DNA from: an uncultured Prevotellaceae bacterium
Lineage (GTDB): Bacteria > Bacteroidota > Bacteroidia > Bacteroidales > Bacteroidaceae
Direction of reading: 5' to 3'
Assembly (NCBI GenBank): GCA_902774925.1
Contig: CACYKE010000003.1
Location: 26,281-90,280, forward strand
Length of the DNA stretch: 64,000 nt
In this document: one piece after another, positions 3,561-51,558 of the stretch
How the letters are laid out: each line of letters begins with the position of its first letter
Numbering within the stretch: position 1 is the stretch's first letter
Position numbers and translations under genes: made by a program
The notes under the pieces: generated by a model
What the model was told of the DNA's origin: nothing
Databases searched by the model: none
Seen by the model: the letters and a program-made list of their open reading frames with translations, nothing else

Positions 3561-5084
3561 TTACTTACGTACGGTGAAGGGTGTACGGGAGGGGTCGTTG
3601 ATGATGCGTGCGGCATGGCGGCCGTCGAAGCGCGTGGGGGCGATGATGAATTCGGGGACGTTGAACGACAGGAAACGGTCGCGATAGAACTGGCGGGGAT
3701 TGCGCTGAGGCAGCATAAAGGCCTTGCTGACGCGGCCGTCGGCATCGACGTGACAGAAATAGGGACGGGTGAAGAGACCGTCGTCGCGGCGGGAACTGAC
3801 GACGAGCCAGCGGGAGTTGGCGGTCCAGTTGTGGAACGATTCCGTGTCGTCGGAGTTGGCCGCGGTCATAGGACGGCTCTCACCGGTAGTGAGGTCGAGG
3901 AGCCAGAGGTCGGCCTCGTGGTGCCAGATGCTGAACTGTCCGTAGTCGGAGAGCGTGTAGCACAGGAAACGACCGTTGTAGGAGGGTCGGGGGAAGGAGA
4001 TAGATTTTTGTTGAGCTGCGGCATCGATGATGGTGTCTATATGGTCGCCGAAGGTTCCTGTGGCAGGGTCGAAATCGATGCGGCAGAGGTTATAGCGAAT
4101 GGAGTCGAGTAGGACCGAAGATTGCTCAGATTGATTGGTTTCGGGGATGGCGCGCGCGGCACAGAAATAGAGCGACCGCCCGTCGGCCGAGAAGACGGGG
4201 AAGGTCTCGAAGATGGAGTCCTGTTTGAGCAGGGGCGAGAGGATGAGCTCGTTTTTCTCAACATCGTAGACCTGAACATCGGAGGCTTCATCGAAGACCT
4301 CGATGCGGTTGGGGTCGGCACTATGGAAGAGTTGACGCGTGGTGTTGGTGGAATAGGCGATATAGCGGCCCGACGGATGCCAGTAAGGATAGACGCAGAG
4401 GCCGAGGGTCTGTGGGGTCTTGGTGTCGTAGGCAGCCATTGACCATTGACCATTGACCATTGACCTTTGACCATTATGTCGTAGCAGGGTGGCACCATGC
4501 GGGCCACGGATGTGGAGGCTCATGTCGGCGGGGTTGCCGCGGTTGAAGCTGTGGCAGTTGACGCAGCCCTCGAACTGGGTATTTTCAATCAGCGCACGCT
4601 CGTCGAACGACGAGAGGTCGCGTTCGTAGATACCCATTTTGCTCCATACCTCGTAGCCCGGTGCTATCAGGCGGTAGCAGAGACCGTAGTCGATACTGTC
4701 GGGGCTGACGTAGAGGACGAAGGGACGGTAGGTGTGCCAGCCGTCGTCGTATTTGGCGGAAACGGTGACGGTGAGCGAGTCGCCGGGGGTATCGCCAAGT
4801 AACGTGTGCCAGTCATCAAGGTCGAAATCGACGGCATCGTCGCCCTGACTGTGCAATTCGTGTCCGTGACGGTCGGTAATGACGGCATCGATGCGCAAGG
4901 CTGTCTCGTCGGCCATATTGAAGTTGAGCGGGGCGATATTGACGGGTATGGTGACACCGATGTAGTCGGGGTATATATCGGGCTGTGCGGCCTCTTGCTT
5001 CGCGTCGCTGACGGTTTCTGTGCAAGCGGCCAACAGCCAACAGCCAATAGCCAATAGCCAGCATCTATATAGAATTTTTTTCAT
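3561..5084 (-). CDS. lipoprotein with a single CxxCH motif and a PD40/TolB-like beta-propeller region (module copy A, gene 2)
   Basis: 507 aa. Lipobox LLAAC; CVNCHS; repeated P.WSPDG-like blades (YWHPSGRYIAYS, FSADGRSLYF, PSYNGRFLCY, WTANSRWLVV). Clear paralog of 6468..8051 (IYPDY..VT.P.NIAPLNF, YRLI.P.Y, C.NCHS, YP.WHP). Confidence 0.7.
   Translation of the reverse strand: MKKILYRCWLLAIGCWLLAACTETVSDAKQEAAQPDIYPDYIGVTIPVNIAPLNFNMADETALRIDAVITDRHGHELHSQGDDAVDFDLDDWHTLLGDTPGDSLTVTVSAKYDDGWHTYRPFVLYVSPDSIDYGLCYRLIAPGYEVWSKMGIYERDLSSFDERALIENTQFEGCVNCHSFNRGNPADMSLHIRGPHGATLLRHNGQRSMVNGQWSMAAYDTKTPQTLGLCVYPYWHPSGRYIAYSTNTTRQLFHSADPNRIEVFDEASDVQVYDVEKNELILSPLLKQDSIFETFPVFSADGRSLYFCAARAIPETNQSEQSSVLLDSIRYNLCRIDFDPATGTFGDHIDTIIDAAAQQKSISFPRPSYNGRFLCYTLSDYGQFSIWHHEADLWLLDLTTGESRPMTAANSDDTESFHNWTANSRWLVVSSRRDDGLFTRPYFCHVDADGRVSKAFMLPQRNPRQFYRDRFLSFNVPEFIIAPTRFDGRHAARIINDPSRTPFTVRK
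4436..4475. repeat. heptanucleotide tandem repeat CCATTGA x about 5.7 (one unit CCTTTGA), in frame inside CDS 3561..5084
   Basis: ccattga ccattga ccattga ccattga cctttga ccatt; encodes NGQRSMVNGQWSM on the minus strand. Confidence 0.95.
5029..5063. repeat. heptanucleotide tandem repeat GCCAAYA x5, encoding the signal-peptide h-region of CDS 3561..5084
   Basis: gccaaca gccaaca gccaata gccaata gccagca; the minus strand encodes CWLLAIGCWLLA. Confidence 0.9.
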
Positions 5085-6502
5085 TGCTTAGTGGACATGA
5101 ATTGATTGAAGCGTTCGCGGTCGCCCGTCAGCATATAGTAAGCCAAGAGGTATTGATAGGCCATGCGATTGTCAGGATTGCGGGAATAGAGGCTTTCGAG
5201 CATCTCGGGGGTCGTATGGTCGCTGAAGTAGCTGTCATCCTTGTAGTTCCACTGGCGCAGGTGCCCGTATTCGGGATGTTTGGCAATGGCCTCTTCATTA
5301 CCCAACAGCGGGAGGGTCTCGTTGGCCCAGTCACGATAGAAGAGGGTCTTCTGCAGGGCCATGAGGTATTTGCGGGCCACCTCGTACTGGCCGTTGATGA
5401 GATTGGTCTGTGCCAGACGCTGGTAACAGCGACCGCTCTTCTGGAAGTCGAGAATGGCCTCCTGAGCCTCGAATACCGTTCGCTGGGCAACATTGATCAT
5501 GCCCAGCTGGTAGAAGGCCTCAGCGGTGGGCAGAGGGCTTGTGGCATCTTCCTTGACGTCGGGCAACAGACCCGCTATGCCATTCTGATTGAAATTACCC
5601 ATTTGTTCCAAGAGCATACCGTTCATTGCCAAGGCTAGATTCTGTACCGTCACACCGATTTGATTGTTGGGCTTTTCGGCACTGATGGTCTGAAGGATGC
5701 GGTTCCACTGCTGGTGGCGCGCCATGAAGTCGTATTGCATCACCTTCTCGGCCTTGATATTGGCGTTTTTCCAGACAAAAGAGCCCATGATGATGGCTAC
5801 GATTGCAAAGGAGAGGTAAGGGGTGAGAGATGAGAGGTGAGAGAAATGTACCTGGCGACGACGGATTAGAAAATTCAACCCGAAAATCACCCAAATAGAC
5901 AGGGCTGCTCCCCAAAGGAGCCACGGAAATACGGTGGGATAGCGGTGGTAGTGTATGCCGGTCCAGAGACTGTCGATGGGTATGGGGAAACATACGGGGC
6001 CTATCAGGAAGTAGAGTAGGGGAATGGCGACGATGAGCAGTATGCGGCATGTCCATCCTTTTGACAATGATACGATAACCCAGACTATGAGCAATGTAAT
6101 CAGGACTGCCCAGACACCACTCATCAGTGCATTCTCGTCGAGCAGATAAAGCCACAGCAGGAACGAAGGTACAAAGGTCAGGCCGTAGGACCATTGACCA
6201 TTGACCATTGACCATTGACCATTGGATAGCCGGAGGGTTAGGAGTTGTATCACCGAGAGCAGAATGGCAATGATGGCAGCGCCTACCCAGGCATAGAGGA
6301 AGAACTGCGTACAGAAACGCCCGAGCAGGTCGGCGATGCCTCCGGGTTGCCTGACAATCTCCCACACATACGTGCTATCGAAGAGGAAAATCTGGTACTG
6401 CTCCTGATAGTGCAGATGATGCGGATAGGTCAGTCCGAAAAAGATGAGGACAGCCACACCGAACAGACTACTTGTCAAATACTTTACTGAATTCATCGAC
6501 AC
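5081..6502 (-). CDS. polytopic inner-membrane protein with a helical-repeat (TPR-like) C-terminal domain (module copy A, gene 1; possibly DUF6057-like, unverified)
   Basis: 473 aa with multiple hydrophobic segments, then a soluble tail. Paralogous to 8035..9864 (shared LFY(R/D)DW region and overall layout). Its stop overlaps the start of 3561..5084 by 4 nt. Confidence 0.7.
   Translation of the reverse strand: MSMNSVKYLTSSLFGVAVLIFFGLTYPHHLHYQEQYQIFLFDSTYVWEIVRQPGGIADLLGRFCTQFFLYAWVGAAIIAILLSVIQLLTLRLSNGQWSMVNGQWSYGLTFVPSFLLWLYLLDENALMSGVWAVLITLLIVWVIVSLSKGWTCRILLIVAIPLLYFLIGPVCFPIPIDSLWTGIHYHRYPTVFPWLLWGAALSIWVIFGLNFLIRRRQVHFSHLSSLTPYLSFAIVAIIMGSFVWKNANIKAEKVMQYDFMARHQQWNRILQTISAEKPNNQIGVTVQNLALAMNGMLLEQMGNFNQNGIAGLLPDVKEDATSPLPTAEAFYQLGMINVAQRTVFEAQEAILDFQKSGRCYQRLAQTNLINGQYEVARKYLMALQKTLFYRDWANETLPLLGNEEAIAKHPEYGHLRQWNYKDDSYFSDHTTPEMLESLYSRNPDNRMAYQYLLAYYMLTGDRERFNQFMSTKQ
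5808..5849. repeat. imperfect heptad repeat (GGTGAGA type) about 5-6 units inside CDS 5081..6502
   Basis: aaggaga ggtaagg ggtgaga gatgaga ggtgaga gaaatgt; encodes HFSHLSSLTPYLSF on the minus strand. Confidence 0.7.
6191..6225. repeat. heptanucleotide tandem repeat CCATTGA x5 (last unit CCATTGG), in frame inside CDS 5081..6502
   Basis: ccattga x4 + ccattgg; encodes NGQWSMVNGQWS. Confidence 0.95.
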
Positions 6503-8051
6503 TGATTTTAACCGGTTCCACCATGAATTCCGGACGGTTGTAACTCTTCAGCAGGAAGGTGTTGTGTTCGGGGTCTTCCTGTGGTAGCATAAAGGCCTTT
6601 TCAAACTTCCCATCGTGGAAATAGGAGAAATAGACGCGGCAGAAATTGCCATCGTCACGACGACTGGCAACCATAATCCAATGGCCATTGCTCGACCATG
6701 AAGGATAGCTGTCGGGGCGGCCTTCACTATTGACGTTGGTCATATCAAGGAAAGTCGGATTTTGTGTATGAGCCGCTATCGAATCCTGGTCCAGCGGCAT
6801 ACAAACGATATCACCATCGTTGTGACGGATATGGAAACAACCATACTGACCCAGGGCAAAGAGCAGATAACGCCCATCGGGACTGACACGTGGCAAGGTA
6901 ACACTCTTGTCGTTCCCGGCAGCGTCGTACACCAGTTCTTCGTCACCGAAATTGTGCGTTGCCACGTCGAACGAACGGCGATAGAGGTTGTATTGCACTT
7001 TCGGGTAGGTGGTACGGATATCTTTGTCGTGCATCTCTTCAGGCAGTGGAATCGTCTTGCAGTAATAGAGCCATTTGCCGTCGGGCGACCAAGTAGGATA
7101 CACCTCCAAGAGCGTGGAATCGTTGCTGACGACCTGCACCGAATCGGTCTCCACATCGTAGAGAATCAGGTCGCTCTCCAGGTCGTAAACCTCAATCTTG
7201 TTGGGATTGAGTGTATGGAATCCCTGTCGTGTCTTGTTCGTCGAGAAGGCTATCAGCTTGGCGGTAGGATGCCATGCGGGATAGACACCCGAGGAGATGG
7301 TATAGTCGCGCTTCAGGTTGACTCTTGAAATCTTGCCGTCGTTCACCAATACGGTACCGCTATTGGCAAGACGCACGTGGAAGAGCATATTGTCGGTCTT
7401 GTAGTTCTGATAGCTGTGACAGTTGATACACTGACCGATCTTCCTGTTATTCATGGTGATCTCGTTGTTGAAGATCTGCGTCTCTTCGAACGTGGTGAGG
7501 TTACGCTGGGCGATTTCCATGAAGGTCCAGGCAACATACGACGGTTCGATGAGGCGGTACGAGATATAATCATCGATGGGTTCCTTCGCCACATGTATCT
7601 CAAAGGGATTGAACGACAGCCATTCCCCCTTCTGTTGCCCCCAAACCTCGACCTTGATGCTCTTGCCCTTTGCCGTGTTGAGCATCTCGTGCCATTCCTC
7701 CTCGGGAATCTGCACCTTTACGCCTTTACCGTAGGTCTGTTGTTGCCCGTCTGGCGTGGTGATACGAGCCACGCATGCCTCGTATTCATCAGCTGGGAGC
7801 ATGAAGTTGAGCGGTGCGATATTGTAAGGCACGGTGACATTGCAATAGTCGGGATAGATGGCCGGCAGACTCTTGACCTCCTTACTGGAAGAAGGCACAT
7901 CGGGGTGATTCGCACACGATGACAAGAATAAAAGTAAAAAGGTAAAAAGGTAAAGAGGTAAAAACACTTTCACCCAATTTCTTTCCTTGTAACTATTACT
8001 TGCTTTCATATTTTTTACTTTTTTACTTTTTTCATTATGACTGTACTTCAT
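6468..8051 (-). CDS. lipoprotein with a single CxxCH motif and a PD40/TolB-like beta-propeller region (module copy B, gene 2)
   Basis: 527 aa; CINCHS; lipobox LSSC; paralog of 3561..5084. The true start may be ATG 8009 (MKASNSY...), which would remove the overlap with the upstream gene. Confidence 0.7.
   Translation of the reverse strand: MKYSHNEKSKKVKNMKASNSYKERNWVKVFLPLYLFTFLLLFLSSCANHPDVPSSSKEVKSLPAIYPDYCNVTVPYNIAPLNFMLPADEYEACVARITTPDGQQQTYGKGVKVQIPEEEWHEMLNTAKGKSIKVEVWGQQKGEWLSFNPFEIHVAKEPIDDYISYRLIEPSYVAWTFMEIAQRNLTTFEETQIFNNEITMNNRKIGQCINCHSYQNYKTDNMLFHVRLANSGTVLVNDGKISRVNLKRDYTISSGVYPAWHPTAKLIAFSTNKTRQGFHTLNPNKIEVYDLESDLILYDVETDSVQVVSNDSTLLEVYPTWSPDGKWLYYCKTIPLPEEMHDKDIRTTYPKVQYNLYRRSFDVATHNFGDEELVYDAAGNDKSVTLPRVSPDGRYLLFALGQYGCFHIRHNDGDIVCMPLDQDSIAAHTQNPTFLDMTNVNSEGRPDSYPSWSSNGHWIMVASRRDDGNFCRVYFSYFHDGKFEKAFMLPQEDPEHNTFLLKSYNRPEFMVEPVKISVDEFSKVFDK
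7930..7961. repeat. octanucleotide tandem repeat AAAGGTAA x4, encoding the signal-peptide h-region of CDS 6468..8051
   Basis: aaaagtaa aaaggtaa aaaggtaa agaggtaa; the minus strand encodes LPLYLFTFLLL. Confidence 0.85.
8011..8034. repeat. octanucleotide repeat TTTTTTAC x3 at the junction of genes 8035..9864 and 6468..8051
   Basis: ttttttac ttttttac ttttttca, directly abutting stop codon 8035-8037. Confidence 0.8.
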
Positions 8052-9864
8052 GACCGGTATAGCCGTTTAAAACAGGAACTTTTTTGCCAAAGATGTTGTA
8101 CCACCAGTAGGTGTCTCCCCATTCCTTACGCATGCCTTCACCAACTTGATCGATAGTCATATCAGGCTTTACCCGACTTTCAAGATCCTTCCAGAACCGC
8201 TTATAGCGGTCATAGACTGTCTGTTCTACGGGGAGCATCATGCGTTTCTTTTCAGGAGCCTTGTCCATAAATAGGATATAGGCCTCTTGTGCATGCAAGG
8301 GAAATTCCTCGTCCATGTGCGTCTTCACATAATTGCGCAGCGAAGACCAGAAACGACGGGAGTCGCAGCGTAGCATGGAATAGAACAATGCCTGTTCCGA
8401 AACAGCCTTGCTAATGGAGTCGGACCAGAGGCTGATGGTGTTGACGATATAGCTGTCGCTGTTCTCAACGCCAGTGAGTTCATCGGGGAAGGCTTTCTCC
8501 AGTTCCTTGACTTTTTCCGTAACCGGAGACGGCTGCCAATCATCATAAAACAGATGGTGGTGCAGCTGGGTGGTATAGCGTTCTACCAGTTCTTTGTCTC
8601 CGCAAGCCAAGGCACAGCGGGAGAGCATCTTCAGGTAGAAGGGTGAGAAACCTGCTTGTATGGCATTCTCGAAATTCAGGCGGATGGCTTCATTCATCAT
8701 GCCGTAGTTGTAATAGACCAGCGGTGAAGCAATATCCAGAAGGGTGACATGGAGAGAATCGGGGTTATAGAGCGGATAACTACTGTTACCCAATTTAAAC
8801 GAACGGTCGAACAGCCCGCCTTCGTTTGTCAGGGCGATGTTCTTGAGAAAAACCATCGTAGTAGTAGGTTTAGGGCTCTCGGTTGCAATACTAAGCACCC
8901 CCTGCCAGTTGTCGTCTTCGGCATAGCGTACCATGCGCATCTCGTTGATGTAGTTCTTGTCGTAGAACTTCAGTGACGAGGTAAAGACGATGCCGGCAAC
9001 GGCACATAATACTGGAATCATTGACCATTGACCTTTGACCTTTGACCATTGACCATTGACCATTGACCATTGGCCTTTAGTAGTCAGGTAGTGACCCACC
9101 ATCGCGATTCCGACAGAAACGGCTCCCAGCACCCAGAATGGGATGGACAGATGCTCGCTGCTGTCGCTTGGGATGATGAAGCGGGGCAAGCCTGCAAATA
9201 CAACATCGTCGAATCTCAGGTTCGAATAGAATTGGGTATGCCAGATATTGGCGGTAAAGAGGAGCAATACAATGCCCACAAGTTCGCGCCATGTTGGTTT
9301 TTCGCAAAGTGCCAGACAAAGCACGAACAGCATGGCAAACCACCCTAACACCGGGTAGATGCAAAAGCCTATCAGATACCAGGCCAGATGCCATTTACGC
9401 GGTGTCTGGCGTGCTGCCCACAAGAGCAGCAGCATGATGAGATAAGCTACCGACTGCGAGAACCAATAGCCTCTGATGGTAGATATATATACCCAATAGC
9501 CCAAATCGACAATAGAGGTGAGCAGGCAAGCTACAGGCAAGAGCATCAGTGCTGATGCACTGGATTTTAAGCGGAATGCTTTGGCTCCCACTATGAAGAT
9601 AAGCGTCCAGATAGCTATTAGGACGGCTGATCCTACTGCCGGATGATAGAAAAGCTGTGTGAGCCATGCTCCCACATACTGCATCAGGCCAAAGGGCTTC
9701 TGCATCAGGGCGTGGAAGAAGGGTGTTCCGAAGAGGAACTCCGAACGGTCGTGAGCCGTATAGAATACCTCTTGATTGATATATAAGATATAAATGACAA
9801 ATGCTATGTAGGCCAATAGACTTCCTAAAAAGATGGCCCTGGATATCTTGTTTTCTTTATTCAT
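8035..9864 (-). CDS. polytopic inner-membrane protein with a helical C-terminal domain (module copy B, gene 1; possibly DUF6057-like, unverified)
   Basis: The ORF track gives 8035..9981. I start at ATG 9864 (MNKENKISRAIFLG...) because a TACCTTTG box at 9888-9895 lies inside the longer ORF. Many TM segments; paralog of 5081..6502. Confidence 0.7.
   Translation of the reverse strand: MNKENKISRAIFLGSLLAYIAFVIYILYINQEVFYTAHDRSEFLFGTPFFHALMQKPFGLMQYVGAWLTQLFYHPAVGSAVLIAIWTLIFIVGAKAFRLKSSASALMLLPVACLLTSIVDLGYWVYISTIRGYWFSQSVAYLIMLLLLWAARQTPRKWHLAWYLIGFCIYPVLGWFAMLFVLCLALCEKPTWRELVGIVLLLFTANIWHTQFYSNLRFDDVVFAGLPRFIIPSDSSEHLSIPFWVLGAVSVGIAMVGHYLTTKGQWSMVNGQWSKVKGQWSMIPVLCAVAGIVFTSSLKFYDKNYINEMRMVRYAEDDNWQGVLSIATESPKPTTTMVFLKNIALTNEGGLFDRSFKLGNSSYPLYNPDSLHVTLLDIASPLVYYNYGMMNEAIRLNFENAIQAGFSPFYLKMLSRCALACGDKELVERYTTQLHHHLFYDDWQPSPVTEKVKELEKAFPDELTGVENSDSYIVNTISLWSDSISKAVSEQALFYSMLRCDSRRFWSSLRNYVKTHMDEEFPLHAQEAYILFMDKAPEKKRMMLPVEQTVYDRYKRFWKDLESRVKPDMTIDQVGEGMRKEWGDTYWWYNIFGKKVPVLNGYTGHEVQS
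9018..9080. repeat. heptanucleotide tandem repeat CCATTGA/CCTTTGA x9 (63 bp), in frame inside CDS 8035..9864
   Basis: tcattga ccattga cctttga cctttga ccattga ccattga ccattga ccattgg cctttag; encodes KGQWSMVNGQWSKVKGQWSM. Confidence 0.95.
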
Positions 9865-9887
9865 TGTTGTTACTTTACTTTTCGATG

Positions 9888-9895
9888 CAAAGGTA
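9888..9895 (-). promoter_or_regulatory. -7 promoter box TACCTTTG for the four-gene cluster 9864->3561
   Basis: Plus strand reads caaaggta, 24 nt upstream of ATG 9864. Confidence 0.5.
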
Positions 9896-10008
9896 GTAAC
9901 AATATTCAAAAAAGCCAAACTTTTTCCTGAAAAACTTGATGTCTTTAATAATATAAAAGAGGGTGTGCCTATTTGGCGCACCCTCTAATAAAGCATTTAC
10001 ATCAAACT

Positions 10009-18422: not shown

Positions 18423-18463
18423 ATCAAAATTTTAAAAATTGTCTATCCAATTTTATAAAAACA

Positions 18464-18866
18464 CTATTCACTATTCATTATTTCTTGTAAATCACTCAAT
18501 ATCAGTATATTACAGAATGAATAGTAGTAATGAATAGTGCTCTGACTATTCATTATTTGTCTGATTTCGCTGTGATTATACCAATTCTCGCTTTCAAAAA
18601 AAGCGTGTTACTAATATTGAATAATGCAGGAAACACTTTGTCACACGTATGGTGACACTTTGTTTCTCTGCCAGTTACAACTTGTAACGAATTTCTTTGC
18701 TATCGCGTAACTTTCTAATATTTAGGATATTAACCTATTATATGGTAATAAATAATGTTGTAAAAAACGAAAAGATGAATGGTTATAAGTTTTACTTGTA
18801 CTACTATTCATGCTATAATCCTTTAATTATCAGCAAATTACCTTTAATAATGAATAAATGAATAGT
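18464..18866. repeat. cluster of at least 7 copies of the 9-10-mer ACTATTCAT(T) in both orientations within an AT-rich gap
   Basis: Forward copies at about 18465, 18471, 18545 and 18804. Reverse copies (AATGAATAGT) at 18516, 18529 and about 18857. Includes a perfect 10-bp inverted repeat AATGAATAGT-gctctg-ACTATTCATT at 18529..18554. Confidence 0.85.
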
Positions 18867-30300: not shown

Positions 30301-30399
30301 CTCCTCACGATTTCTAAGAATCGTAAGATCATGGAGACAAGCATTGGCTATGCCCCACAGACTCGTTTCTATAACCTCGGTGTTAAAGTAACTCTCTAA
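27394..30399 (+). CDS. second SusC-like TonB-dependent transporter (xusC position)
   Basis: ATG 27394 (MKHMKTNIFLL...); plug motif ITFLKGAQAVVLYGSKGAKGAILITTKRG. No CarboxypepD_reg-like N-terminal domain was recognised. Confidence 0.85.
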   Translation: MKHMKTNIFLLAMMAVSPLTAGAQTADDADSTVVKKKVHVAFRDVDPDHLLGGVSYVDMEELSKKDYTQSSLEDMYGLVGGWNGNNLWGMDNDRLDNNDNDNMPLVIIDGVKRPSNNVLPSEIEQITFLKGAQAVVLYGSKGAKGAILITTKRGKVDGLQIDANANTGWHFAKVFPEYLGSAEYMTLFNEATYNDALGQGNAANVKLPYSQQDIYNHAAGVNPYRYPNVNYYSDEYIRKAYNRSEGTLEIQGGGKRAHFYTNINYYRAEDLINFGKAKDNYTDRFSVRGNVDLVVNKFITGWANVSATYYNEYKNKGNFWSDASSMRPNFPQGAAPLIPLTMVDPNASKALATLGKSLNLLDGMWFPGGGTDGAQSNAIADCYFGGETQKVSRQFQFDAGINYDMNKFLKGLTFKTLFSIDYAANYDLAYNNTYSLFFPTWSNYNTGDAIVDIKQPKDEVVTGTMTMSNSAYRQTITWNGHFDYDNTFAEKHHVTGMLLASMYTTTKSGEYHRYANANLGLQGGYDFMSRYFAEVGLAAVHSARLPEGNRGAISYSFTLGWNIAKESFMKDTFVDDLMLSASYSNLNDDADVYYGSKYFYIYDAAWSDGGTGYTWADGANSHNSTYSTVGSNPSLDYIHRKELSVSLRGSFFNKLISTELTYFNTDMDGYIIQNPTSYPSHLKNGLNSGKFSPALNNNIANRKGLDFSIKAQKQFGQVHAELGFVGTYLKTEWKKYDEVADSKSPWLNSSKQLMHEGTPLDVIQGYNCLGVYTIDDFDVKTDDNGKTTYELKELVKGVQKPYGLGGTPMPGDLKYEDVNGDGKINNQDQVELGKWGTYGAPWTIGLNLTLKYKNWTLFILGNGQFGASALSNGAYYYMSGTNKYSVNVRDHYQYTYDDAGIITGFVNPNATHPRLSVNNTPANGATSTYWLYSTDRFNLRKVQVTYDFPKEWFEGKWVKALSVYLNGNDLLTISKNRKIMETSIGYAPQTRFYNLGVKVTL

Positions 30400-30432
30400 T
30401 TGACAATTGATAATTGAGAATTGAAAATTATG
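30398..30432. repeat. heptad tandem repeat AATTGAN x5 (35 bp) filling the whole spacer from the susC-2 stop to the susD-2 ATG
   Basis: aattgac aattgat aattgag aattgaa aattatg. Stop TAA at 30397-30399, ATG at 30430-30432. Confidence 0.9.
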
Positions 30433-32240: not shown

Positions 32241-32275
32241 AGTTTAAAGTTTAAAGTTGAAAGTTTAAAGTTTTA
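32241..32275. repeat. heptad tandem repeat AGTTTAA x5 (35 bp) occupying the spacer between susD-2 and the next gene
   Basis: agtttaa agtttaa agttgaa agtttaa agtttta. Stop at 32233-32235, next ATG at 32278. Confidence 0.9.
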
Positions 32276-33471: not shown

Positions 33472-35205
33472 ATGAAAAAAATTGTAAATGAGCTTTTAGC
33501 TTTTAGCTGTTTGCTGTTGGCCGCTTCGTGTGCTGACTATAACGATTTGGGTGGCTTTAAAGCAGAACCGGATCCCAGCTACACAGATGAGTATGCTGAG
33601 CTGAATCCTGTCAAGGACTATATTGACAGAACGGCCAATCCGAATATGTCAATGGAGACATCCATGGCCCTGACAACCTATAACAAGCAGGCCTTGGAGC
33701 ATTCAGTGGCAGTGACCAACTTTGATGGTGTTGCTTTTGGCTATACCTTTATGCCGGACAAGTACGTCAGTAAGAAGGGTTATATGAACTTCATGGCTTT
33801 GAAGGAAGCCCTTGGTCACTCGGAAACGATTGGCTATAAGGTGTACGGTAGTCCTATCGTCGCTAACGAGCAACAGTCTGATGTATGGTTTGAATCGCTG
33901 ACAGCTCCTATTGAAGTCTCGGTGCTTCCCATCAATGATGTGGATTTGGACTACTCTACGGTAGATGAATTTACAGGTACGGCGCTGAAAGGTAAACCTG
34001 CCATCGAAAAGAATTTCGATGACAAAGGTAATGCCCTTATGATTCCGAGGAGATCACAGGTTTATATCGTTGAAGGCTTCCCTTCCGATCCTCTTGGCTA
34101 TTATACCGTGACTTTCACCGTGAGGGGTTACAAAGACAACAAGAAGACGGAAATGGCTCAGGAAGAGAACATTCAATGTACTTTTACCGACAGTCTGGTG
34201 AATACCGGTAAGGATAAGAATGGTAATCTTGTTGCCAAGAAGTTCACCATCAGACCTGGTGCCTGGCAGACTGTCAAGGTGGAGTGGTCTCCGTCAAAGG
34301 CTGCCACACAGGGTTACTTGATGATTGAGGGTAACTTGAATGCAGTTCTCTATATCCGTAATGTGCATGTTGAGCACACACCGGACAACCACCGTGAGCA
34401 GACCAAGCAGGAGAAGAACGACACCATTCAGTATGCACTCAGAAAGTGGTGTGATGGTCTGATGGAGGCCAATGCCGGACGTATCAAGTCGTTCGACCTT
34501 GTTGACAAGGCGCTTGGCACAACGGAACTCGAGGGTGTTACTTTCGAGGGTGAGAATGTGCTCGACCTGAAGCACTCTGATGAAAAGATCTTCTGGCAGG
34601 ACTATCTGGAGGAAGGCACCAAGAGTGGCAGTGAGCTCTATGCTGCTACCGTATCAAAGGTGGCAAAGTCTGCCTTCGAGAAGCATGGTGGTAACTCGGA
34701 AGAGTTGAAGTTCTTTATCAGTGAGACAGGCTTGGAGAAGCAGCAGAGACTGTCGAGCCTCAAGTATTGGATCAATGTATGGGAGTCAAATGGTGCCAAG
34801 ATTGATGGTATCAACGGCGAGCTGAATCTCACCTATAGCGAGGATGCTACCACGCAGGCTGCTAATGAGGCTGCGTTGAAGGTCTACTTCGAAAAACTTG
34901 CTCAAACAGGAAAACTCATTCGTCTCTCTAACTTCGACATCAAGTATCAGGATGCTGACGGTGCTCCAGTAGCAGCAGATAAGATTTCGAAGGACCAGCG
35001 TCAGGCTCTGGCCGACTACTATGCCCGTGTCATCAGGGCCTATATGACCCTGGTTCCTGCTGCACAGCAGGCAGGCCTCTGCAAAGGAAACTTCTTTGAT
35101 ACGTCGTCCGATCCTGTGGGCCTTTGGTCTAAGGCTGCTAACGGCGACTATATGCGTAATGCCACTTACGAGGCTTTCTGCAAAGCGCTCACGGGACTAC
35201 AATAA
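33472..35205 (+). CDS. GH10-like lipoprotein with an inserted CBM-like module and both catalytic glutamates substituted (probable non-catalytic xylan-binding protein)
   Basis: 577 aa; lipobox LAASC. GH10 layout is recognisable, but WDVVNE is FDLVDK (Lys codon 34507-34509) and (I/T)SELDI is LSNFDI (Asn codon 34930-34932). GH.L.WH.QQ is degraded to GSPIVANEQQ. Confidence 0.65.
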   Translation: MKKIVNELLAFSCLLLAASCADYNDLGGFKAEPDPSYTDEYAELNPVKDYIDRTANPNMSMETSMALTTYNKQALEHSVAVTNFDGVAFGYTFMPDKYVSKKGYMNFMALKEALGHSETIGYKVYGSPIVANEQQSDVWFESLTAPIEVSVLPINDVDLDYSTVDEFTGTALKGKPAIEKNFDDKGNALMIPRRSQVYIVEGFPSDPLGYYTVTFTVRGYKDNKKTEMAQEENIQCTFTDSLVNTGKDKNGNLVAKKFTIRPGAWQTVKVEWSPSKAATQGYLMIEGNLNAVLYIRNVHVEHTPDNHREQTKQEKNDTIQYALRKWCDGLMEANAGRIKSFDLVDKALGTTELEGVTFEGENVLDLKHSDEKIFWQDYLEEGTKSGSELYAATVSKVAKSAFEKHGGNSEELKFFISETGLEKQQRLSSLKYWINVWESNGAKIDGINGELNLTYSEDATTQAANEAALKVYFEKLAQTGKLIRLSNFDIKYQDADGAPVAADKISKDQRQALADYYARVIRAYMTLVPAAQQAGLCKGNFFDTSSDPVGLWSKAANGDYMRNATYEAFCKALTGLQ

Positions 35206-35332: not shown

Positions 35333-37573
35333 ATGAAGAAACTATTTACTCTCGTTGCTCTCTTGGCATGTTTCCTGGGAGCAAAGGCTGAGTGGCAGGA
35401 AGTCTACAAGATTGACTACTCCACTTATCAGGGTTTCCCCTTCTATGTGATGGGTTATGTGCCAGAGTTTGACAATGGTTGCATGACCGACTTTGGTTCT
35501 AATTTCAGGTATGAAACACAAGCAAACCTTGACGGTGATGGTGACGGCAAATGGAAAGACGGAGAGTCTTCTGTTGGTACAGTTAAGACCTCGGGTGGAA
35601 CTGAGTATCAGAAGGTAACAGGTGCAGGCCCATATTGGCACCAGTATTTCATTGCTGATGGTATCCAGACCAAGCTTGATGGTAAGTATAAAGTTATTGC
35701 ACGCGTAAAGGCTTCAGCAGCTTGCAGCATCGGCGTCAACATGGGTTGGGGCTGGGGTAACGGCGAGCAGGCCGGTGCTACAGTAGCCATCCCTGACGGC
35801 GGTGACTTCCAGGAGGTAACATGGGAGTACAGTGGCATCAATGGTCAGAGCTGTAACCTCGTTGCACAGCCTGGTACTTGCGCTGAAACCATCGAATGGC
35901 TGGACCTTGTTGTGTATGAATGGGTGAAACCCGGTCAGAGACCTAAGGAGTGGCTCGAGGACCTCGAGAACGGTAATGCTGAGACTCCCTGGACTGATGC
36001 GCAGAAGGCTATCAAGTTCGACGATATGGACAACAACTTCACCATTTGTGCTTGGTCAAAGGAGAAGGGTCATAACATGAATGCAAATGATGGTTGGGAT
36101 CCATTCGTTTCTCCTATTGTAGTTGACCCAAAGGATGAAAACAACCACGTATTTATGGTTGATGGTCAGTTAGCTGATTCGAAAGATGATGAGGGCAATG
36201 ATGCTCCTTCAGCATGGGACAACCAGTTCTGGATTCAGTCAAAGCATGCTTGGCCATCAGGTACAACACTGAAGATTAAGTTCCGCTACATGTCTGATCA
36301 TGCCAGTGTAAAAACGAACACTCAGGTTCACCATCAGACTCCTTCTGACTACCTGGTTTGGCACGCTATCGGTGACATTACTTTCACAGACGAATGGCAG
36401 ACCTTTGATGGTACAATGTCTATCGCTGATGATATGGCAGGTGGTTGGTCAATCGCCTTCAACCTGAATGCAGAAGTTAAGGAGCCTGTTAAATTCTACT
36501 TCGATGACCTCTCTTGGCAGTATCTGAAACTTGACGAGGGTTACTTTATCTCTGGTATTAACACCAATACCACCGACTCATACGATGATTTGGACAACGC
36601 TATTCCGTTTGAAGATGGTGAATTGGGCTTGGAAGCTACTTTTGGTACCAAGGGTGATGCAAATACTTATGTTAATCAGGTGATGATTTCTACTAAGCGT
36701 GGTGATGATCAGGCCTTCAAGGGCGCTACATTGAAACCCGGTGAAAAGGTTGATCTTGATCCTGAACATTGGATTGACTATACTGCATCTTCTAATTGTA
36801 AGATTGATCTCCCAGGTCTTGGTGTTTGGAAGGTTATCATTGACGAGTCATACAACGCTATGGCATTCGAGATGCTCGAAGGTACTCCTGATGAGCCGGC
36901 TGAGCCTATTGACATCATTACCAACGCAACAGAGGTTACTGTAAAGGGTCTGGAGCGTGAGTACACTGAAGCTGAGGCTGAAGCTGCTGGCATCGAAAAA
37001 CCAGTTCCTGCTGGTCAGCCTTGGGACAACCAGTTCTTCCTGGTTGCTAACCGCACATTGAAGCCTGGTGAGGTAACTGTTGTTAAGTTCTCTTATAAGG
37101 CTAGCAAGGAAGCCAAGACGACTACACAGCTTCATGGTAATCCTGGTACTTACATCCACTGGGCTGCTATCGGTGATGTGAACTTCACTGAGGAGTGGCA
37201 GGACTTCGAAAATGAATACACTATTCCTAATGAGGCAGAAGGTAAGGATGCAAAGTCTATCGCATTCAACATGGCTGAAATCAAGGAGGCTTGCGACTAT
37301 CTGTTGAAGGACTTCCAGTGGTATATTAAGTGCGATGAAGATCCTACCAAGACTTATGAGAACCTGCTTGATGAAACCGGTTCTGCGAACCTCTACGTGA
37401 AGGAAGGTGCTGGTACTTCTCCTTATCAGTTCGGTACTGATCCTTCTGGTATCACCAACATTACTGCTAAGCAGAACTCTTCTGCTGCTATCTACAACAT
37501 CGCTGGTCAGAAGGTTGACAACAACTTCAAGGGCCTCGTTGTTAAGGACGGCAAGAAGTTCGTGAATAAGTGA
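35333..37573 (+). CDS. secreted non-catalytic protein with two internally repeated CBM-like domains and a T9SS C-terminal sorting-domain-like tail
   Basis: 746 aa. The internal duplication is SAWDNQFWIQSKHAWPSGTTLKIKFRY...GDITFTDEWQTF...SIAFNL versus QPWDNQFFLVANRTLKPGEVTVVKFSY...GDVNFTEEWQDF...SIAFNM. C-terminus SAAIYNIAGQKVDNNFKGLVVKDGKKFVNK. Confidence 0.7.
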   Translation: MKKLFTLVALLACFLGAKAEWQEVYKIDYSTYQGFPFYVMGYVPEFDNGCMTDFGSNFRYETQANLDGDGDGKWKDGESSVGTVKTSGGTEYQKVTGAGPYWHQYFIADGIQTKLDGKYKVIARVKASAACSIGVNMGWGWGNGEQAGATVAIPDGGDFQEVTWEYSGINGQSCNLVAQPGTCAETIEWLDLVVYEWVKPGQRPKEWLEDLENGNAETPWTDAQKAIKFDDMDNNFTICAWSKEKGHNMNANDGWDPFVSPIVVDPKDENNHVFMVDGQLADSKDDEGNDAPSAWDNQFWIQSKHAWPSGTTLKIKFRYMSDHASVKTNTQVHHQTPSDYLVWHAIGDITFTDEWQTFDGTMSIADDMAGGWSIAFNLNAEVKEPVKFYFDDLSWQYLKLDEGYFISGINTNTTDSYDDLDNAIPFEDGELGLEATFGTKGDANTYVNQVMISTKRGDDQAFKGATLKPGEKVDLDPEHWIDYTASSNCKIDLPGLGVWKVIIDESYNAMAFEMLEGTPDEPAEPIDIITNATEVTVKGLEREYTEAEAEAAGIEKPVPAGQPWDNQFFLVANRTLKPGEVTVVKFSYKASKEAKTTTQLHGNPGTYIHWAAIGDVNFTEEWQDFENEYTIPNEAEGKDAKSIAFNMAEIKEACDYLLKDFQWYIKCDEDPTKTYENLLDETGSANLYVKEGAGTSPYQFGTDPSGITNITAKQNSSAAIYNIAGQKVDNNFKGLVVKDGKKFVNK

Positions 37574-37673
37574 GTGAAGTGAGAGCTCGCTCACACTTCC
37601 GAGCGTGAGCGGACTCGAGCTTTAGCTCAAGTTCGTGAATAAGTAAGATAAGTGAGAGTGAGTTCGCTCACAC
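37556..37673. repeat. direct duplication (about 41-45 bp copies at 37556-37596 and 37629-37673) of the gene 3' end plus hairpin
   Basis: aagttcgtgaataagtGAgtgaagtgagag..ctcgctcacac versus aagttcgtgaataagtAAgataagtgagagtgagttcgctcacac. Confidence 0.8.
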
Positions 37674-39863: not shown

Positions 39864-40463
39864 TTAGTCGTAAACTGTTATTTTCCCTTTGACGATGACA
39901 GCCTCAGTAAAGCCCATCTTCCGCAGACTGAGCAGCATCTGGTGTGCTTCCTCGTAGGTGCGGTAGTTGCCCACACGGCATATCCATCGTGGGGAGATGA
40001 AGTGAGTATAGACAGGTACTTCGGGGTAACTGCCCTTGATTCTGCTGGCCACGCTTTCTGCCTGTATGCGGTCTTTGCGTGAATTGCCGCCAGCAAAGGC
40101 CTGTACGCGATAACCGGTAACCTTCGTACCGCCAGTCCTGATTTTCTTGGTAATCTCCACGGGTGCCTCTTCGGCGGTGGTGCCGTTGTCAGTGGTGGTG
40201 GTTGGTTTCGTTGTCGTCGTAGAAGAGGTAGGGTTGGTAGGTTTCGTGGGGGAAGTAGGGGAGGTGGGGGTGGTAGGTTTTGTGGTAGTTGTCGTAGCAC
40301 CGAGCACGGCGCTGTTTACCAATTGGTCTATCTCCGCACTCTCCTCAATGGTCACCGTACCCTGCCCGGCCTTCTTTTGCTGGACACGCTGAGTAAACGT
40401 CTGTGCACTGGCATTGACGACAATGCCAGCACACAGCGTGAAAAATAGGATGAGACGTCTCAT
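39864..40463 (-). CDS. SPOR domain protein with a Thr/Pro-rich linker
   Basis: I use ATG 40463 (MRRLILFFTLCAGIVVNASAQ). C-terminal SPOR-like YRVQAFAGGNSRKDRIQAESVASRIK...WICRVGNYRTYEEA. Confidence 0.75.
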   Translation of the reverse strand: MRRLILFFTLCAGIVVNASAQTFTQRVQQKKAGQGTVTIEESAEIDQLVNSAVLGATTTTTKPTTPTSPTSPTKPTNPTSSTTTTKPTTTTDNGTTAEEAPVEITKKIRTGGTKVTGYRVQAFAGGNSRKDRIQAESVASRIKGSYPEVPVYTHFISPRWICRVGNYRTYEEAHQMLLSLRKMGFTEAVIVKGKITVYD

Positions 40464-42954: not shown

Positions 42955-42989
42955 TTCTTACCTCTTACCTCTCACCTCTTACCTCTTAA
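42955..42989. repeat. heptad tandem repeat CTCTTAC x5 (35 bp) filling the spacer between the PAP2 stop and the DUF1599 start
   Basis: ttcttac ctcttac ctctcac ctcttac ctcttaa. ATG at 42954-42952; stop TTA at 42986-42988. Confidence 0.9.
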
Positions 42990-44936: not shown

Positions 44937-46448
44937 ATGAAACTATATTCGGACGCAGCACTGGCAAAGATATTGGACAAAGATATCTTCCATCTTATCG
45001 GCAATGTTGCCGACGAGTTGGGGGTGGAGTGTTACGTCGTCGGGGGTTACGTGCGCGATATATTCCTCGAACGGCCTTCTGACGATATCGATGTCGTCGT
45101 CGTGGGTTCGGGCATTCGCGTTGCTGAGGCCCTGAAACAGCGTCTTGGCCGTCGTGCCCATCTCTCGGTATTCCGTAATTTTGGCACAGCCCAGGTGAAG
45201 GTGGCAGTTGGCAATTGGCAGTTAGCAAATAGCCAAGAGCCAGGAGCCAAGAGCCTCGAAATAGAGTTCGTCGGAGCGCGAAAGGAAAGCTACAGCCACG
45301 ACTCGCGCAAACCCATTGTTGAGGACGGCACGCTGGAGGATGACCAGAATCGCCGTGACTTCACCATCAATGCGATGGCTATCTGCTTGAACCACAATCG
45401 CTTCGGACAACTTGTCGACCCCTTCAACGGCATTGCTGACCTCGAAGACGGCATTATTGCCACGCCGCTCGACCCTGAGGTGACATTCTCCGACGACCCG
45501 CTGCGCATGATGCGTTGTATTCGTTTTGCCACCCAACTGAACTTCCAGATTGAGGACGAAACCTTCGAGGCCCTGCAACGGATGGCTGCACGTATCAAGA
45601 TTGTCAGTGCCGAACGTATCGAGGTGGAACTGAACAAAATCATGATGGCTCCTCATCCGAGCATCGGGTTCGAACTCCTCCAGCGCTCAGGGCTGCTTCA
45701 GATTATCCTGCCCGAACTCGCAGCTCTCGACATCGTTGAAAAGCGTGACAACCGTGCTCATAAAAACAATTTCTATCATACCCTCGAAGTCCTCGAAAAC
45801 GTCGTGATAGCCAACTGCCAAGAGCCAATGGCTAATAGCCAAAACATCCTTTGGCTCCGCTGGGCGGCCTTGCTGCATGATGTGGGAAAAACGAAGTCTA
45901 AACGCTGGGAACCAGGCATTGGCTGGACCTTCCACAACCACAATACCATCGGTGCCCGGATGGTGCCGCAGATTTTCCGGCGCCTTAAACTTCCCATGGG
46001 TACCGAGATGAAGTATGTCCAGCTGCTTGTCGACCTCCACATGCGACCGCAGGTCATTGCTGACAGTGAAGTTACCGACTCTGCCGTGCGCCGTCTGTTA
46101 AACGATGCCGGCGACTACATCGACGACCTCATGCTGCTCTGCGAGGCAGATATCACATCGAAGAACGAGGTAAAAAAACGGATGTTCCTCGAGAATTTCC
46201 GTATGGTTCGCGAAAAACTTGCCGATTTGCAGGTAAAAGACTACAAACGCCTTCTTCAGCCTGTCATCGACGGCAACGAGATTATGGAGCTCTTCCATCT
46301 CAAACCTTCCCGCGAGGTGGGTGTCCTCAAGCAATACCTCAAGGATGCCGTTCTTGACAACCGTGTTGAAAACGAGCGTGAGCCTTTGATGGCTCTCCTT
46401 CTCGAAAAAGCCCGCCAAATGGGTCTGATATCTTTACAGTCATCATAA
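44937..46448 (+). CDS. CCA-adding enzyme-like tRNA nucleotidyltransferase with an HD domain
   Basis: ATG 44937 (MKLYSDAALAKIL...). GGYVRDIFL...DIDVVV nucleotidyltransferase motif, FVGARKESY, RRDFTINA, LLHDVGK HD motif. Confidence 0.8.
   Translation: MKLYSDAALAKILDKDIFHLIGNVADELGVECYVVGGYVRDIFLERPSDDIDVVVVGSGIRVAEALKQRLGRRAHLSVFRNFGTAQVKVAVGNWQLANSQEPGAKSLEIEFVGARKESYSHDSRKPIVEDGTLEDDQNRRDFTINAMAICLNHNRFGQLVDPFNGIADLEDGIIATPLDPEVTFSDDPLRMMRCIRFATQLNFQIEDETFEALQRMAARIKIVSAERIEVELNKIMMAPHPSIGFELLQRSGLLQIILPELAALDIVEKRDNRAHKNNFYHTLEVLENVVIANCQEPMANSQNILWLRWAALLHDVGKTKSKRWEPGIGWTFHNHNTIGARMVPQIFRRLKLPMGTEMKYVQLLVDLHMRPQVIADSEVTDSAVRRLLNDAGDYIDDLMLLCEADITSKNEVKKRMFLENFRMVREKLADLQVKDYKRLLQPVIDGNEIMELFHLKPSREVGVLKQYLKDAVLDNRVENEREPLMALLLEKARQMGLISLQSS
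45203..45255. repeat. heptad repeat block in frame inside the cca-like gene (GGCARTT x3, then AGCAAAT, then AGCCARG x3.5)
   Basis: ggcagtt ggcaatt ggcagtt agcaaat agccaag agccagg agccaag agcc; encodes VAVGNWQLANSQEPGAKS. Confidence 0.85.
45809..45843. repeat. heptad repeat block x5 in frame inside the cca-like gene
   Basis: agccaac tgccaag agccaat ggctaat agccaaa; encodes IANCQEPMANSQ, just before the LLHDVGK HD motif. Confidence 0.8.
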
Positions 46449-47209: not shown

Positions 47210-47673
47210 ACAGAGAAAACGAGGGCCTACAGCAGTTAGGCCGCAAGACAGAATACAAGATGACGTATGCTCCAGAAGTTCTGGAGACGTTTGAGAACAA
47301 GCATAAGGAGAACGACTATTGGGTGCAGTTCAACTGCCCGGAATTTACGTCGCTTTGTCCGATTACCGGTCAGCCGGACTTCGCGGAAATCAAGATTGCG
47401 TACATTCCTGGTGAACGCATGGTGGAGTCGAAGAGTCTGAAACTTTACCTTTTTTCGTTCCGTAACCACGGTGACTTCCACGAGGATTGCGTGAACATCA
47501 TCATGAAGGACTTGGTGAAGCTGATGCAACCGAAGTATATCGAGGTGGTTGGGTTGTTTACACCCCGTGGCGGCATCAGCATCTGGCCTTATGCCAACTA
47601 CGGTCAGCCGGGCACGAAGTACGAGCGCATGGCCGAAGAACGATTGCTGAACCGTCAAATGGTTAACGGTTAA
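47206..47673 (+). CDS. queF: NADPH-dependent 7-cyano-7-deazaguanine (preQ0) reductase, type I
   Basis: 155 aa. [17 protein letters not shown]...[24 protein letters not shown]...[12 protein letters not shown] is near-identical in motifs to Bacillus YkvM/QueF as I recall it. Confidence 0.92.
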
Positions 47674-47702
47674 TGGTTATTGGTTATAGTTTATTGGCTT
47701 AC
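47654..47702. repeat. graded heptad repeat GGTTAAY type x7 spanning the queF stop and the HAD start
   Basis: gtcaaat ggttaac ggttaat ggttatt ggttata gtttatt ggcttac. TAA at 47671-73 and ATG at 47673-75 both lie inside it. Confidence 0.85.
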
Positions 47703-50888: not shown

Positions 50889-51419
50889 GCAATCATTGAT
50901 AAGTATTACCCTGCGGACGATGAAGCGCTCCGCAGGGTATTACTACAACATTCACGGCAGGTGGCTGACCGCTGTCTGCTGATAGCACGTACGCATCGGG
51001 AACTGCCTGTGGACGTGCAATTTCTGGAGGAGGCAGCCATGTTACACGATATTGGCATCTTCCGCTGTAATGCCCCTAGCATCTGTTGTAACGGTACGGA
51101 GCCATATATCCGTCACGGAGTCATCGGTGGTGAGATACTGCGCAACGAAGGCTTTCCCCGTCATGCCCGTGTGGCCGAGCGACATACGGGAACGGGACTG
51201 ACGCTGCAACAGATAGAGCGCCAGAAACTTCCCCTGCCGCACGAAGATTTCTCGCCCGAGACGCTGGAAGAACAGATTGTCTGCTATGCCGATAAGTTCT
51301 ATTCTAAGTCTCGAATGGAACGTGTGCTGACCGTTGCCGAGGCAGCGCAGTCGTTAGAGAAGTTCGGTCACGAAGGCGTACTGAAGTTCCTCGAGTGGTC
51401 ACGCATGTTCGAACGTTGA
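50877..51419 (+). CDS. HD-domain phosphohydrolase
   Basis: 180 aa; AAMLHDIG... and ERHTGTG motifs. Confidence 0.75.
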   Translation: MDYQAIIDKYYPADDEALRRVLLQHSRQVADRCLLIARTHRELPVDVQFLEEAAMLHDIGIFRCNAPSICCNGTEPYIRHGVIGGEILRNEGFPRHARVAERHTGTGLTLQQIERQKLPLPHEDFSPETLEEQIVCYADKFYSKSRMERVLTVAEAAQSLEKFGHEGVLKFLEWSRMFER

Positions 51420-51558
51420 ACATTGAACATGTTTACAAAGTGCAACTTTTCTGCATGAAAACACACCAAAATGAGTGCAAAGAAGTGACATTTCGTAATT
51501 TCTTGTATAGTTTTGTGATTTTTTTATAAATTTATTCGTTTTTTAGAGAACTATCCAT

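Follow-up and report, generated by a model that had tools for sequence, protein, structure and literature searches.

What does a tandem repeat do inside a gene when its unit is seven nucleotides long, so that gain or loss of a single unit would shift the reading frame? This question is raised by a stretch of 64,000 nucleotides (nt) from an uncultured Prevotellaceae bacterium, a Prevotella of the rumen (contig CACYKE010000003.1 of assembly GCA_902774925.1, positions 26,281 to 90,280), hereafter the window, in which three genes of one four-gene operon (denoted g1 to g4) each contain a (CCATTGA)n tract. A preliminary description of this DNA reported tracts of about 5.7, 5 and 9 units in g1, g2 and g4, where we find them as well, and proposed that they form a contingency switch operated by slipped-strand mispairing. 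We found that the reading frame is kept at the tracts in every close-relative assembly examined and that their length is mutable. The tracts are therefore discussed here as what they probably are, namely, tolerated coding heptanucleotide microsatellites that expanded from native seeds and are driven by slippage under the constraint of the frame.

Length and reading frame of the tracts

All three tracts are read from the minus strand. On the coding strand, tract 1 is AATGGTC AAAGGTC (AATGGTC)x3 AATGG, which encodes NGQRSMVNGQWSM in a beta-turn of the g1 lipoprotein, at about residue 204; tract 2 consists of five perfect AATGGTC units that encode NGQWSMVNGQWS in the loop separating two hydrophobic helices of the g2 membrane protein (about residue 93); and tract 3 is AAAGGCC (AATGGTC)x4 (AAAGGTC)x2 AATGGTC AATGATT, encoding KGQWSMVNGQWSKVKGQWSM in a loop of the DUF6057 protein g4 (about residue 265). 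The CCTTTGA variants that had been noticed among the units are present, one in tract 1 and two in tract 3, and the perfect stretches comprise 4.3, 5.1 and 4.4 units in tracts 1, 2 and 3, respectively. A search for the two-unit pattern CCATTGACCATTGA with at most two mismatches gave 15 matches in the window, every one inside the three tracts; shuffled windows contained 0.61 matches on average, and none of 100 shuffles reached 15, so that head-to-tail copies of CCATTGA exceed the chance expectation. The three tracts are also the sole perfect repeats with at least three copies and a period of 4 to 12 in the 64 kb. The claim that the unit is unique in the window thus stands for CCATTGA itself, but not for heptamers in general: Tandem Repeats Finder (TRF) reported 18 period-7 rows with other units.

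The placement of the tracts in loops, also part of the preliminary description, is consistent with the hydrophobic segments on both sides of the tracts in the two DUF6057 proteins and with the two-residue turn found at the tract 1 site in 60 or more g1 orthologs, relative to which tract 1 is an insertion. An AlphaFold model of the DUF6057 protein, built from a 23-sequence alignment, shows residues 97-109 as a coil between helices, although with a pLDDT of 46.7 the model is poor beyond secondary structure. The three genes encode the same heptapeptide, as had been pointed out, because a repeat of 7 nt yields one and the same cyclic heptapeptide in whichever frame it is read (three units make 21 nt). 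The shared peptide is an arithmetic consequence of the common unit and strand and does not constitute independent evidence. No reading frame of TCAATGG contains a stop codon, and the tracts are restricted to minus-strand genes because the plus-strand unit, CCATTGA, carries TGA. An assembly artefact was considered and ruled out, given that these tracts recur in independent assemblies of separate studies.

Under the contingency switch hypothesis, gain or loss of one unit would frameshift the genes, turning the pairs of DUF6057 protein and lipoprotein reversibly off and on within a population. This is what could be expected of a 7-nt unit, not a multiple of 3, that lies early to mid-gene in three open reading frames (ORFs), in an operon with overlapping stop and start codons (the g2 stop overlaps the g1 start) and translational coupling of the genes; furthermore, tract length differs between strains, and the homogenised units imply frequent slippage. 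Such a locus should show out-of-frame alleles among isolates. We compared 14 close relatives at the DNA level, drawn from the species representatives, from metagenomes and from other contigs whose encoded proteins are near-identical, taking the tract lengths between fixed flanking anchors. All the allele data come from assembled contigs, and metagenome and metatranscriptome contigs end at tracts and drop rare variants.

Among these relatives, the g2 tract measures 26, 47, 68 or 89 nt between the anchors, that is, 2, 5, 8 or 11 units, and the g4 tract measures 34, 55 or 76 nt (3, 6 or 9 units), with three distinct interruption patterns within the 9-unit allele. The g1 tract is the same base for base in 7 genomes, and 4 others contain a degenerate version that is 3 nt longer. 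All the length differences are multiples of 3 nt and, for pure tracts, multiples of 21 nt; out-of-frame alleles account for 0 of about 59 site-by-genome observations. At larger distances, tblastn recovers g2 as one uninterrupted full-length segment from every one of the 80 species representatives, its residue-93 loop is mostly 11, 18, 25 or 32 amino acids long across 120 protein clusters, and the loop spans 33 or 54 nt in most species. The sister-strain comparison thus shows tracts in g2 and g4 that differ in length and always keep the frame.

The sole frameshifted g2 ortholog among about 150 loci (L132:2100-2200, 61% identical) comes from the only one of 67 metagenome loci in which the g2 loop is broken. 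The frameshift maps to the same residue-93 loop, as would suit a switch, but it arises because about 35 nt are duplicated (CAAGCCAAGCGGCAGAGCCGAGCGC repeated) and involves no change in the number of units; the locus may represent a pseudogene, an OFF allele or a faulty assembly. At a word depth of about 200x, contigs carrying a 7-nt indel at the tracts were absent, a result of little weight given that rare variants are lost from contigs. Moreover, the tracts contain only 4 to 5 perfect units, and two of them are interrupted, compared with mostly 8 to 38 units in those Haemophilus heptanucleotide tracts for which phase variation has been shown or proposed. Contingency loci require single-unit steps with coexisting ON and OFF alleles, and the relatives display neither. 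Between strains, as judged from assembled sequence, ON/OFF switching therefore lacks support, and we consider a contingency switch very unlikely. What survives of the original proposal is the propensity to slip, reflected in the different unit numbers among close strains, but not the frameshift switch. The alternative raised at the same time, inert in-frame insertions, comes nearer to the evidence, except that the tracts are not static: their units are homogenised, and their lengths change in 7-amino-acid steps.

Origin and turnover of the tracts

Orthologs that lack the tracts reveal what occupied the three sites. At the tract 1 site, tract-free g1 orthologs contain a native AATGGTC (Asn-Gly-Pro codons); at the tract 2 site, tract-free g2 orthologs contain AAxTGGGGATGG (Asn-Trp-Gly-Trp codons); and at the g4 site, the loop of most species is a short LTKWF that contains a native AAATGGTT (Lys-Trp-Phe codons). 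The presence of a native AATGG-type heptamer at each site points to local expansion by slippage. In distant species, the g2 loop is a non-repeated 33-nt sequence (TLRLxNWGWLY), and in one subclade it consists of 2 or 5, rarely 8 or 11, units. The units of the g2 loop are homogenised in each species (TCAATGG, TCAATTC, TCAACTC, TCATAGT, TCAATGT, TCAACGT, TCAAAGT or TCAAAGG), being more alike within one species than at the equal position across species. Such homogeneity implies concerted evolution, a signature of repeated expansion and contraction. Gene conversion between the paralogs, considered as a source of the common unit, is ruled out by the non-homologous positions of the tracts in g2 and g4, which share only about 22% identity.

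We infer slippage as the mechanism of tract change and selection as the cause of its three-unit quantisation. Each tract would have originated by tandem duplication of a heptamer that pre-existed in a short, insertion-tolerant loop, the seeds being the three native sequences described above, and would then grow and shrink via replication slippage. Loop-outs of 7 nt escape mismatch repair; being above the size that this system handles, they would allow rapid turnover of the tracts. Because the genes are needed, the survivors would be those with net changes of three units (21 nt, or one NGQWSMV heptapeptide). The predicted outcome is a loop the length of which varies in quanta of 7 amino acids, with the frame preserved and the units homogenised in each lineage.

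Heptamer arrays, palindromic cores and recurrent segments

The CCATTGA tracts belong to a wider heptamer excess across the sampled rumen Prevotella sequence. In a sample consisting of the window and 147 related loci (1.55 Mb, the loci being centred on this operon), 224 of the 369 arrays that reach three or more copies have period 7; another count over the sampled loci gave 128 of 216. The period-7 arrays comprise 81 canonical units, of which AATGGTC (that is, CCATTGA) is the most frequent (36 of 233 arrays); 197 of the 233 arrays (85%) lie within long open frames, and most of the tracts in the sampled loci are pure. In rumen metagenomes, the bins containing the tracts reach a word depth of 13,000-25,000x, against about 200x in the flanks, and the tracts occur in hundreds of contigs with unrelated flanks; the very high depth indicates that the unit is present at very many loci.

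Heptamer tracts recur at the same places in the operon: g2 has one at residue 93 in about 30 loci and at residue 220 in at least 26, the signal peptide of g1 has one in 20, and g4 has one at residue 265 in 10. The g1 signal-peptide array of the window is matched in related genomes by alleles of 33 nt or 21 nt, neither of which breaks the frame. The operon contains 5 of the window's 11 TRF period-7 arrays of roughly three or more copies (6 with the degenerate array at 5811-5844) in about 10% of the window's length. This concentration, together with heptamer hot spots in the same few loops in many species, non-tree-like combinations of alleles among close relatives, and the association of a lipoprotein with membrane proteins close to SusC/SusD genes, is compatible with adaptive loop variation, whereby the tracts would be kept for fast change of exposed envelope loops in 7-amino-acid steps and protein diversity would be selected. 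The gain could be escape from phages, predators or host factors. However, surface exposure of the loops is not established, the sole structure model being poor; heptamer tracts are found also in housekeeping genes and intergenic spacers of the window (for example, at 45202-45255); and the tract of the lipoprotein does not vary across 7 genomes. We therefore regard selection for loop diversity as unlikely, although it deserves more consideration than a switch.

Some of the heptamer tracts in the sampled loci flank non-repeat cores. Core1 is a palindrome of about 75-83 nt with AATGGTC tracts on both sides and the landmarks RTAAGCGAG, a hairpin and CCGAGCGTGAG; the hairpin includes 23 predicted pairs, 9 of these with compensatory changes, and a covariance model identified ten full-length copies in 1.59 Mb. 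One copy is located in an intergenic spacer (L028), and others occupy three different in-frame sites within g2, in either orientation (L048; L031; and L032, L044, L098 and L094, where 24 residues are added between NYKDD and SYFSDH). An Rfam search of the loci with the palindromic core gave no match. Core2 (TCTCTCTGAGAGTGTGGCGTTGCAATC) is a 27-nt sequence between heptamer tracts that interrupts the residue-93 tract of g2 in some lineages, its orientation in L002 being opposite to that in L148-L150; it has 6 matches in 5 loci, compared to about 0.1 expected by chance according to a back-of-envelope estimate. A third type of segment consists of a non-repeat head, denoted head3, followed by (TCTTCAC)n.

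Several observations weigh against tolerated local slippage as a complete account of the tracts. At a fourth site, near g1 residue 401, the window, L002 and L004 retain the ancestral turn, whereas four relatives contain TCTCAAACTGACGAGCC(AATGGTC)5 and two contain GAAAAGGCGGCAGCAGAT(TCTTCAC)4, each adding 39 nt; the (AATGGTC)5 tract was gained there by close relatives although the site has no seed. The (TCTTCAC)n insertion, along with its non-repeat head, recurs in the residue-220 loop of g2 in three other species. Recurrent segments of this kind, comprising a head and a tract, suggest copying between loci rather than local slippage. In the sister species L002, each of the three sites carries a unit of its own (AAAGTTT, ATAGTTC and AAAGGTC), so the identity of the unit in the window is a feature of the lineage and not a rule; local origin alone does not account for the convergence of three slightly differing seeds on the one unit AATGGTC. 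Function, and not tolerance alone, could underlie the marked preference for loops of 5 units among the species. Finally, low-frequency out-of-frame variants within one population are compatible with the assembled-contig data.

The first of these observations bear on a dispersed origin, in which the tracts would have been copied into, or homogenised among, the three genes from other AATGGTC tracts, whether through recombination at short homologies, templated repair, or mobile elements that are small, palindromic and equipped with heptamer arms; the pure tracts would then be 'solo' remnants. The seedless (AATGGTC)5 tract in g1 of close relatives, the head3 segment shared by g1 residue 401 and by g2 residue 220 of other species, the two orientations of core2 in the g2 loop, and the ten copies of core1, with its flanking heptamer tracts, at unrelated sites all fit this scenario. 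Conversely, no core sequence adjoins the three tracts of the window: neither core1 nor core2 nor head3 has a match beside 4436, 6189 or 9019. A palindromic hairpin core at unrelated sites is a property of core1 and not of the CCATTGA tracts; most of the sampled tracts are pure, and the native AATGG-type seeds at all three sites are enough for a local origin. Such copying is therefore an improbable source of the three tracts. A broader, tentative and rather doubtful possibility is that rumen Prevotella harbor an undescribed cassette system, in which heptamer tracts, frequently attached to short palindromic cores, are copied between loci and inserted in frame, in either orientation, into loops of envelope proteins and others; the cassettes would be similar to the Rickettsia palindromic elements except for their microsatellite arms. 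The three tracts of the operon would then belong, as solo copies, to AATGGTC, the commonest family, and, if the system is real, cassette copying would contribute heavily to the diversity of loops in these bacteria. For the tracts examined here, the probable explanation remains that of microsatellites expanded from native seeds, confined to the frame and tolerated in loops.

Heptamer arrays with other units are scattered through the rest of the window. Two of these, at 30398-30429 and 32241-32273, fill nearly the whole of the SusC-SusD spacer and of the spacer between SusD and the next gene in a GH10 xylanase polysaccharide utilization locus, and another, at 42956-42988, makes up nearly the entire PAP2-DUF1599 spacer. 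The array at 45202-45255 is a double one (TGGCAGT, AGCCAAG) within a CCA-adding/poly(A)-polymerase-like gene; additional arrays with different units are located at 18462-18482, 33491-33508, 47660-47697 and 51411-51430. Other periods are represented as well. In the N-terminal, signal region of g3, there are period-8 arrays at 7930-7964 and 8011-8032 (AAAGGTAA x4.4 and TTTTTTAC x2.8), and the corresponding bin reaches a word depth of about 3,000-5,600x in rumen metagenomes, against about 30-230x in the neighbours (about 200x in X1), indicating that this repeat is widespread, too. GC-rich arrays with periods of 9-36 nt are found within long ORFs at 61529-61648 and 40197-40285 (GGCGGTCGTGGC-type and GGTAGGGGT-type), where they presumably encode Gly/Arg-rich or similar low-complexity tails.

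The operon and comparison with known repeat systems

Table 1. Genes of the operon, repeat tracts and arrays within it, and sites of non-repeat cores in the window and in related loci (L numbers).
Feature	Position	Strand	Description
g1	3561..5084	-	Lipoprotein, lipobox LAAC, PD40/TolB-like beta-propeller repeats, CVNCH motif; holds tract 1
g2	5081..6502	-	DUF6057 integral membrane protein, Pfam PF19529 E = 3.9e-135; holds tract 2
g3	6468..8051	-	PD40 lipoprotein paralogous to g1, CINCH motif; without CCATTGA tract
g4	8035..9864	-	DUF6057 paralog, Pfam PF19529 E = 6.5e-69; holds tract 3
Tract 1	4436-4475	-	(CCATTGA)n on the plus strand, 5.7 units
Tract 2	6189-6224	-	5.1 perfect CCATTGA units
Tract 3	9019-9072 (TRF); 9016-9078	-	7.7 units by TRF; nine units counting degenerate ends
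Heptamer array (TGGCTRT)x4.6	5029..5060	-	Signal peptide of g1; encoded peptide CWLLAIGCWLLA
Degenerate heptamer array, CTCTCAC type	5811..5844	-	SHLSSLTPYLS, second g2 loop, about residue 220
head3 cassette, AAGGCGGCAGCAGAT + (TCTTCAC)n	L003:8601-8660; L081:7122-7180; L084:7131; L031:6725; L063:6657; L126:5202		
core2 sites	L002:6321-6347; L148/L149/L150 g2 loop; L100:5094-5161; L004 (-) ~3667; L006 (-) ~8408		
core1 copies	window 37551-37633 (+), on to ~37700; L028:5826-5908; L048:1003-1085; L145:2940-3022; L146:3236-3319		
core1 copies	L031:6296-6377; L032:7255-7336; L044:4174-4255; L098:3916-3997; L094:5800-5881	-	

The operon consists of two pairs of genes, each encoding a PD40 lipoprotein and a DUF6057 membrane protein (Table 1), with 34-37% identity between g3 and g1 (tblastn). 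The ORF of g4 is open to 9981 (8035..9981), but orthologs align from the ATG at 9864, which favours that start. SusC/SusD genes and two ORFs without annotation lie upstream of the operon; a gene for a HAD-like protein and a histidine kinase gene lie downstream of it. Searches identified 2916 homologs of g2; the homologs derive from metagenome-assembled genomes of rumen Prevotella, the nearest species representatives being RUG443 (94% amino acid identity) and RUG14561 (91%). Almost all 80 species representatives retain the gene order g4-g3-g2-g1, a few loci being rearranged or split by contig ends, and g1 orthologs are present in nearly all loci that include the 5' flank. Rumen metatranscriptome runs contain up to 69% of the sampled g2 words; g2 is therefore transcribed. 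Sequence searches of the PDB with g1 and g2 gave no match, an NCBIfam scan of the four genes gave none above the cut-off, and no solved structure or curated family assigns a function to these genes. Both lipoproteins contain CxxCH, a motif that typifies the attachment of c-type haem.

A repeat that lies within genes and has a non-triplet unit does not in itself amount to a phase-variation switch; in the present comparison the frame is kept throughout, and a tempting false positive is removed. The tracts offer a natural example of a 7-nt microsatellite under coding constraint, with native seeds, concerted evolution, three-unit steps and a peptide that does not depend on the frame. Rumen Prevotella appear to be rich in heptamer repeats and small in-frame insertions, which may have a bearing on the diversification of envelope proteins. 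This richness has consequences for work on rumen metagenomes, that is, for calling genes, typing strains and assembling short reads, since contigs break at heptamer tracts. The feature seems to be of an ordinary kind, coding heptanucleotide microsatellites in permissive loops, and the Prevotella case seems undescribed in the literature that we found: a search on heptanucleotide repeats, simple sequence repeats (SSRs) or DUF6057 in Prevotella yielded nothing relevant. The comparative data are unusually clean, and the in-frame palindromic insertions are noteworthy beside the tracts.

Among the known systems, the Rickettsia palindromic elements are in-frame selfish insertions in ORFs. Like these elements, core1 is a small palindrome that occurs at unrelated sites and is inserted in frame in genes without breaking them; judging from its sequence, core1 looks like a Prevotella analogue of the Rickettsia elements. 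According to PMC4596501, a MITE (miniature inverted-repeat transposable element) of Porphyromonas gingivalis contains a minisatellite, a Bacteroidales precedent for a MITE associated with a tandem repeat, albeit not a heptamer. Both likenesses apply to core1 and core2 only, the three tracts of the window being coreless.

Cyanobacteria possess heptamers known as short tandemly repeated repetitive (STRR) sequences, among which STRR2, TTGGTCA, is one base away from ATGGTCA, a rotation of the unit described here. A protein search with (NGQWSMV)x6 retrieved mostly spurious ORFs of fewer than 75 amino acids from many phyla, with records of Oscillatoria, Calothrix, Niastella and Ignavibacteria among them. 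TAACTGA heptamers form direct repeats in Beggiatoaceae, cyanobacteria and some Bacteroidetes (PMC4679880). As in the window, a single heptamer occurs at many loci and can be translated in the reverse orientation only, owing to a stop codon in the forward one; some TAACTGA arrays fill the spacer just before a start codon, as do the arrays at 30398-30429 and 32241-32273. The three tracts described here differ in that they are coding, and many other units coexist with theirs.

The parallel with Haemophilus that accompanied the switch proposal is loose. The systems share a heptanucleotide unit, single-unit changes that shift the frame within an ORF, and an association with surface or envelope genes. 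In Haemophilus influenzae, the classical heptanucleotide repeats of hmw1A and hmw2A are located in the promoters, in 9-38 copies; the species also contains (AACAACC)n, located at or within the gene for a TonB-dependent receptor, and, as an intragenic repeat of hmw1A, (AATTTTG)14 (PMC2424069, PMC2651432), and a frameshifted allele of the intragenic hmw1A tract has been reported (PMC2651432). Overall, the Haemophilus heptamer tracts have 8-38 units, are best studied upstream of genes, where they tune transcription, and include alleles that are frameshifted between strains (PMC2424069, PMC2651432). In contrast, the tracts described here have 5-9 units and are partly interrupted, and all alleles in close relatives are in frame.

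The closest resemblance is to the long SSRs of prokaryotes, among which heptanucleotides are reported to be the commonest unit class in many species (Mrazek 2007, as summarised in PMC4679880). These repeats share with the tracts of the window the tandem 7-nt units, the many different units per genome, the strong excess of period 7 and the presumed slippage; the copy-number polymorphism among related genomes and the homogenised units observed here are likewise those of heptanucleotide microsatellites. What sets the present case apart is the occurrence in rumen Prevotella, with 85% of the tracts within ORFs, in orthologous loops of dozens of species, and with lengths that change in steps of three units.

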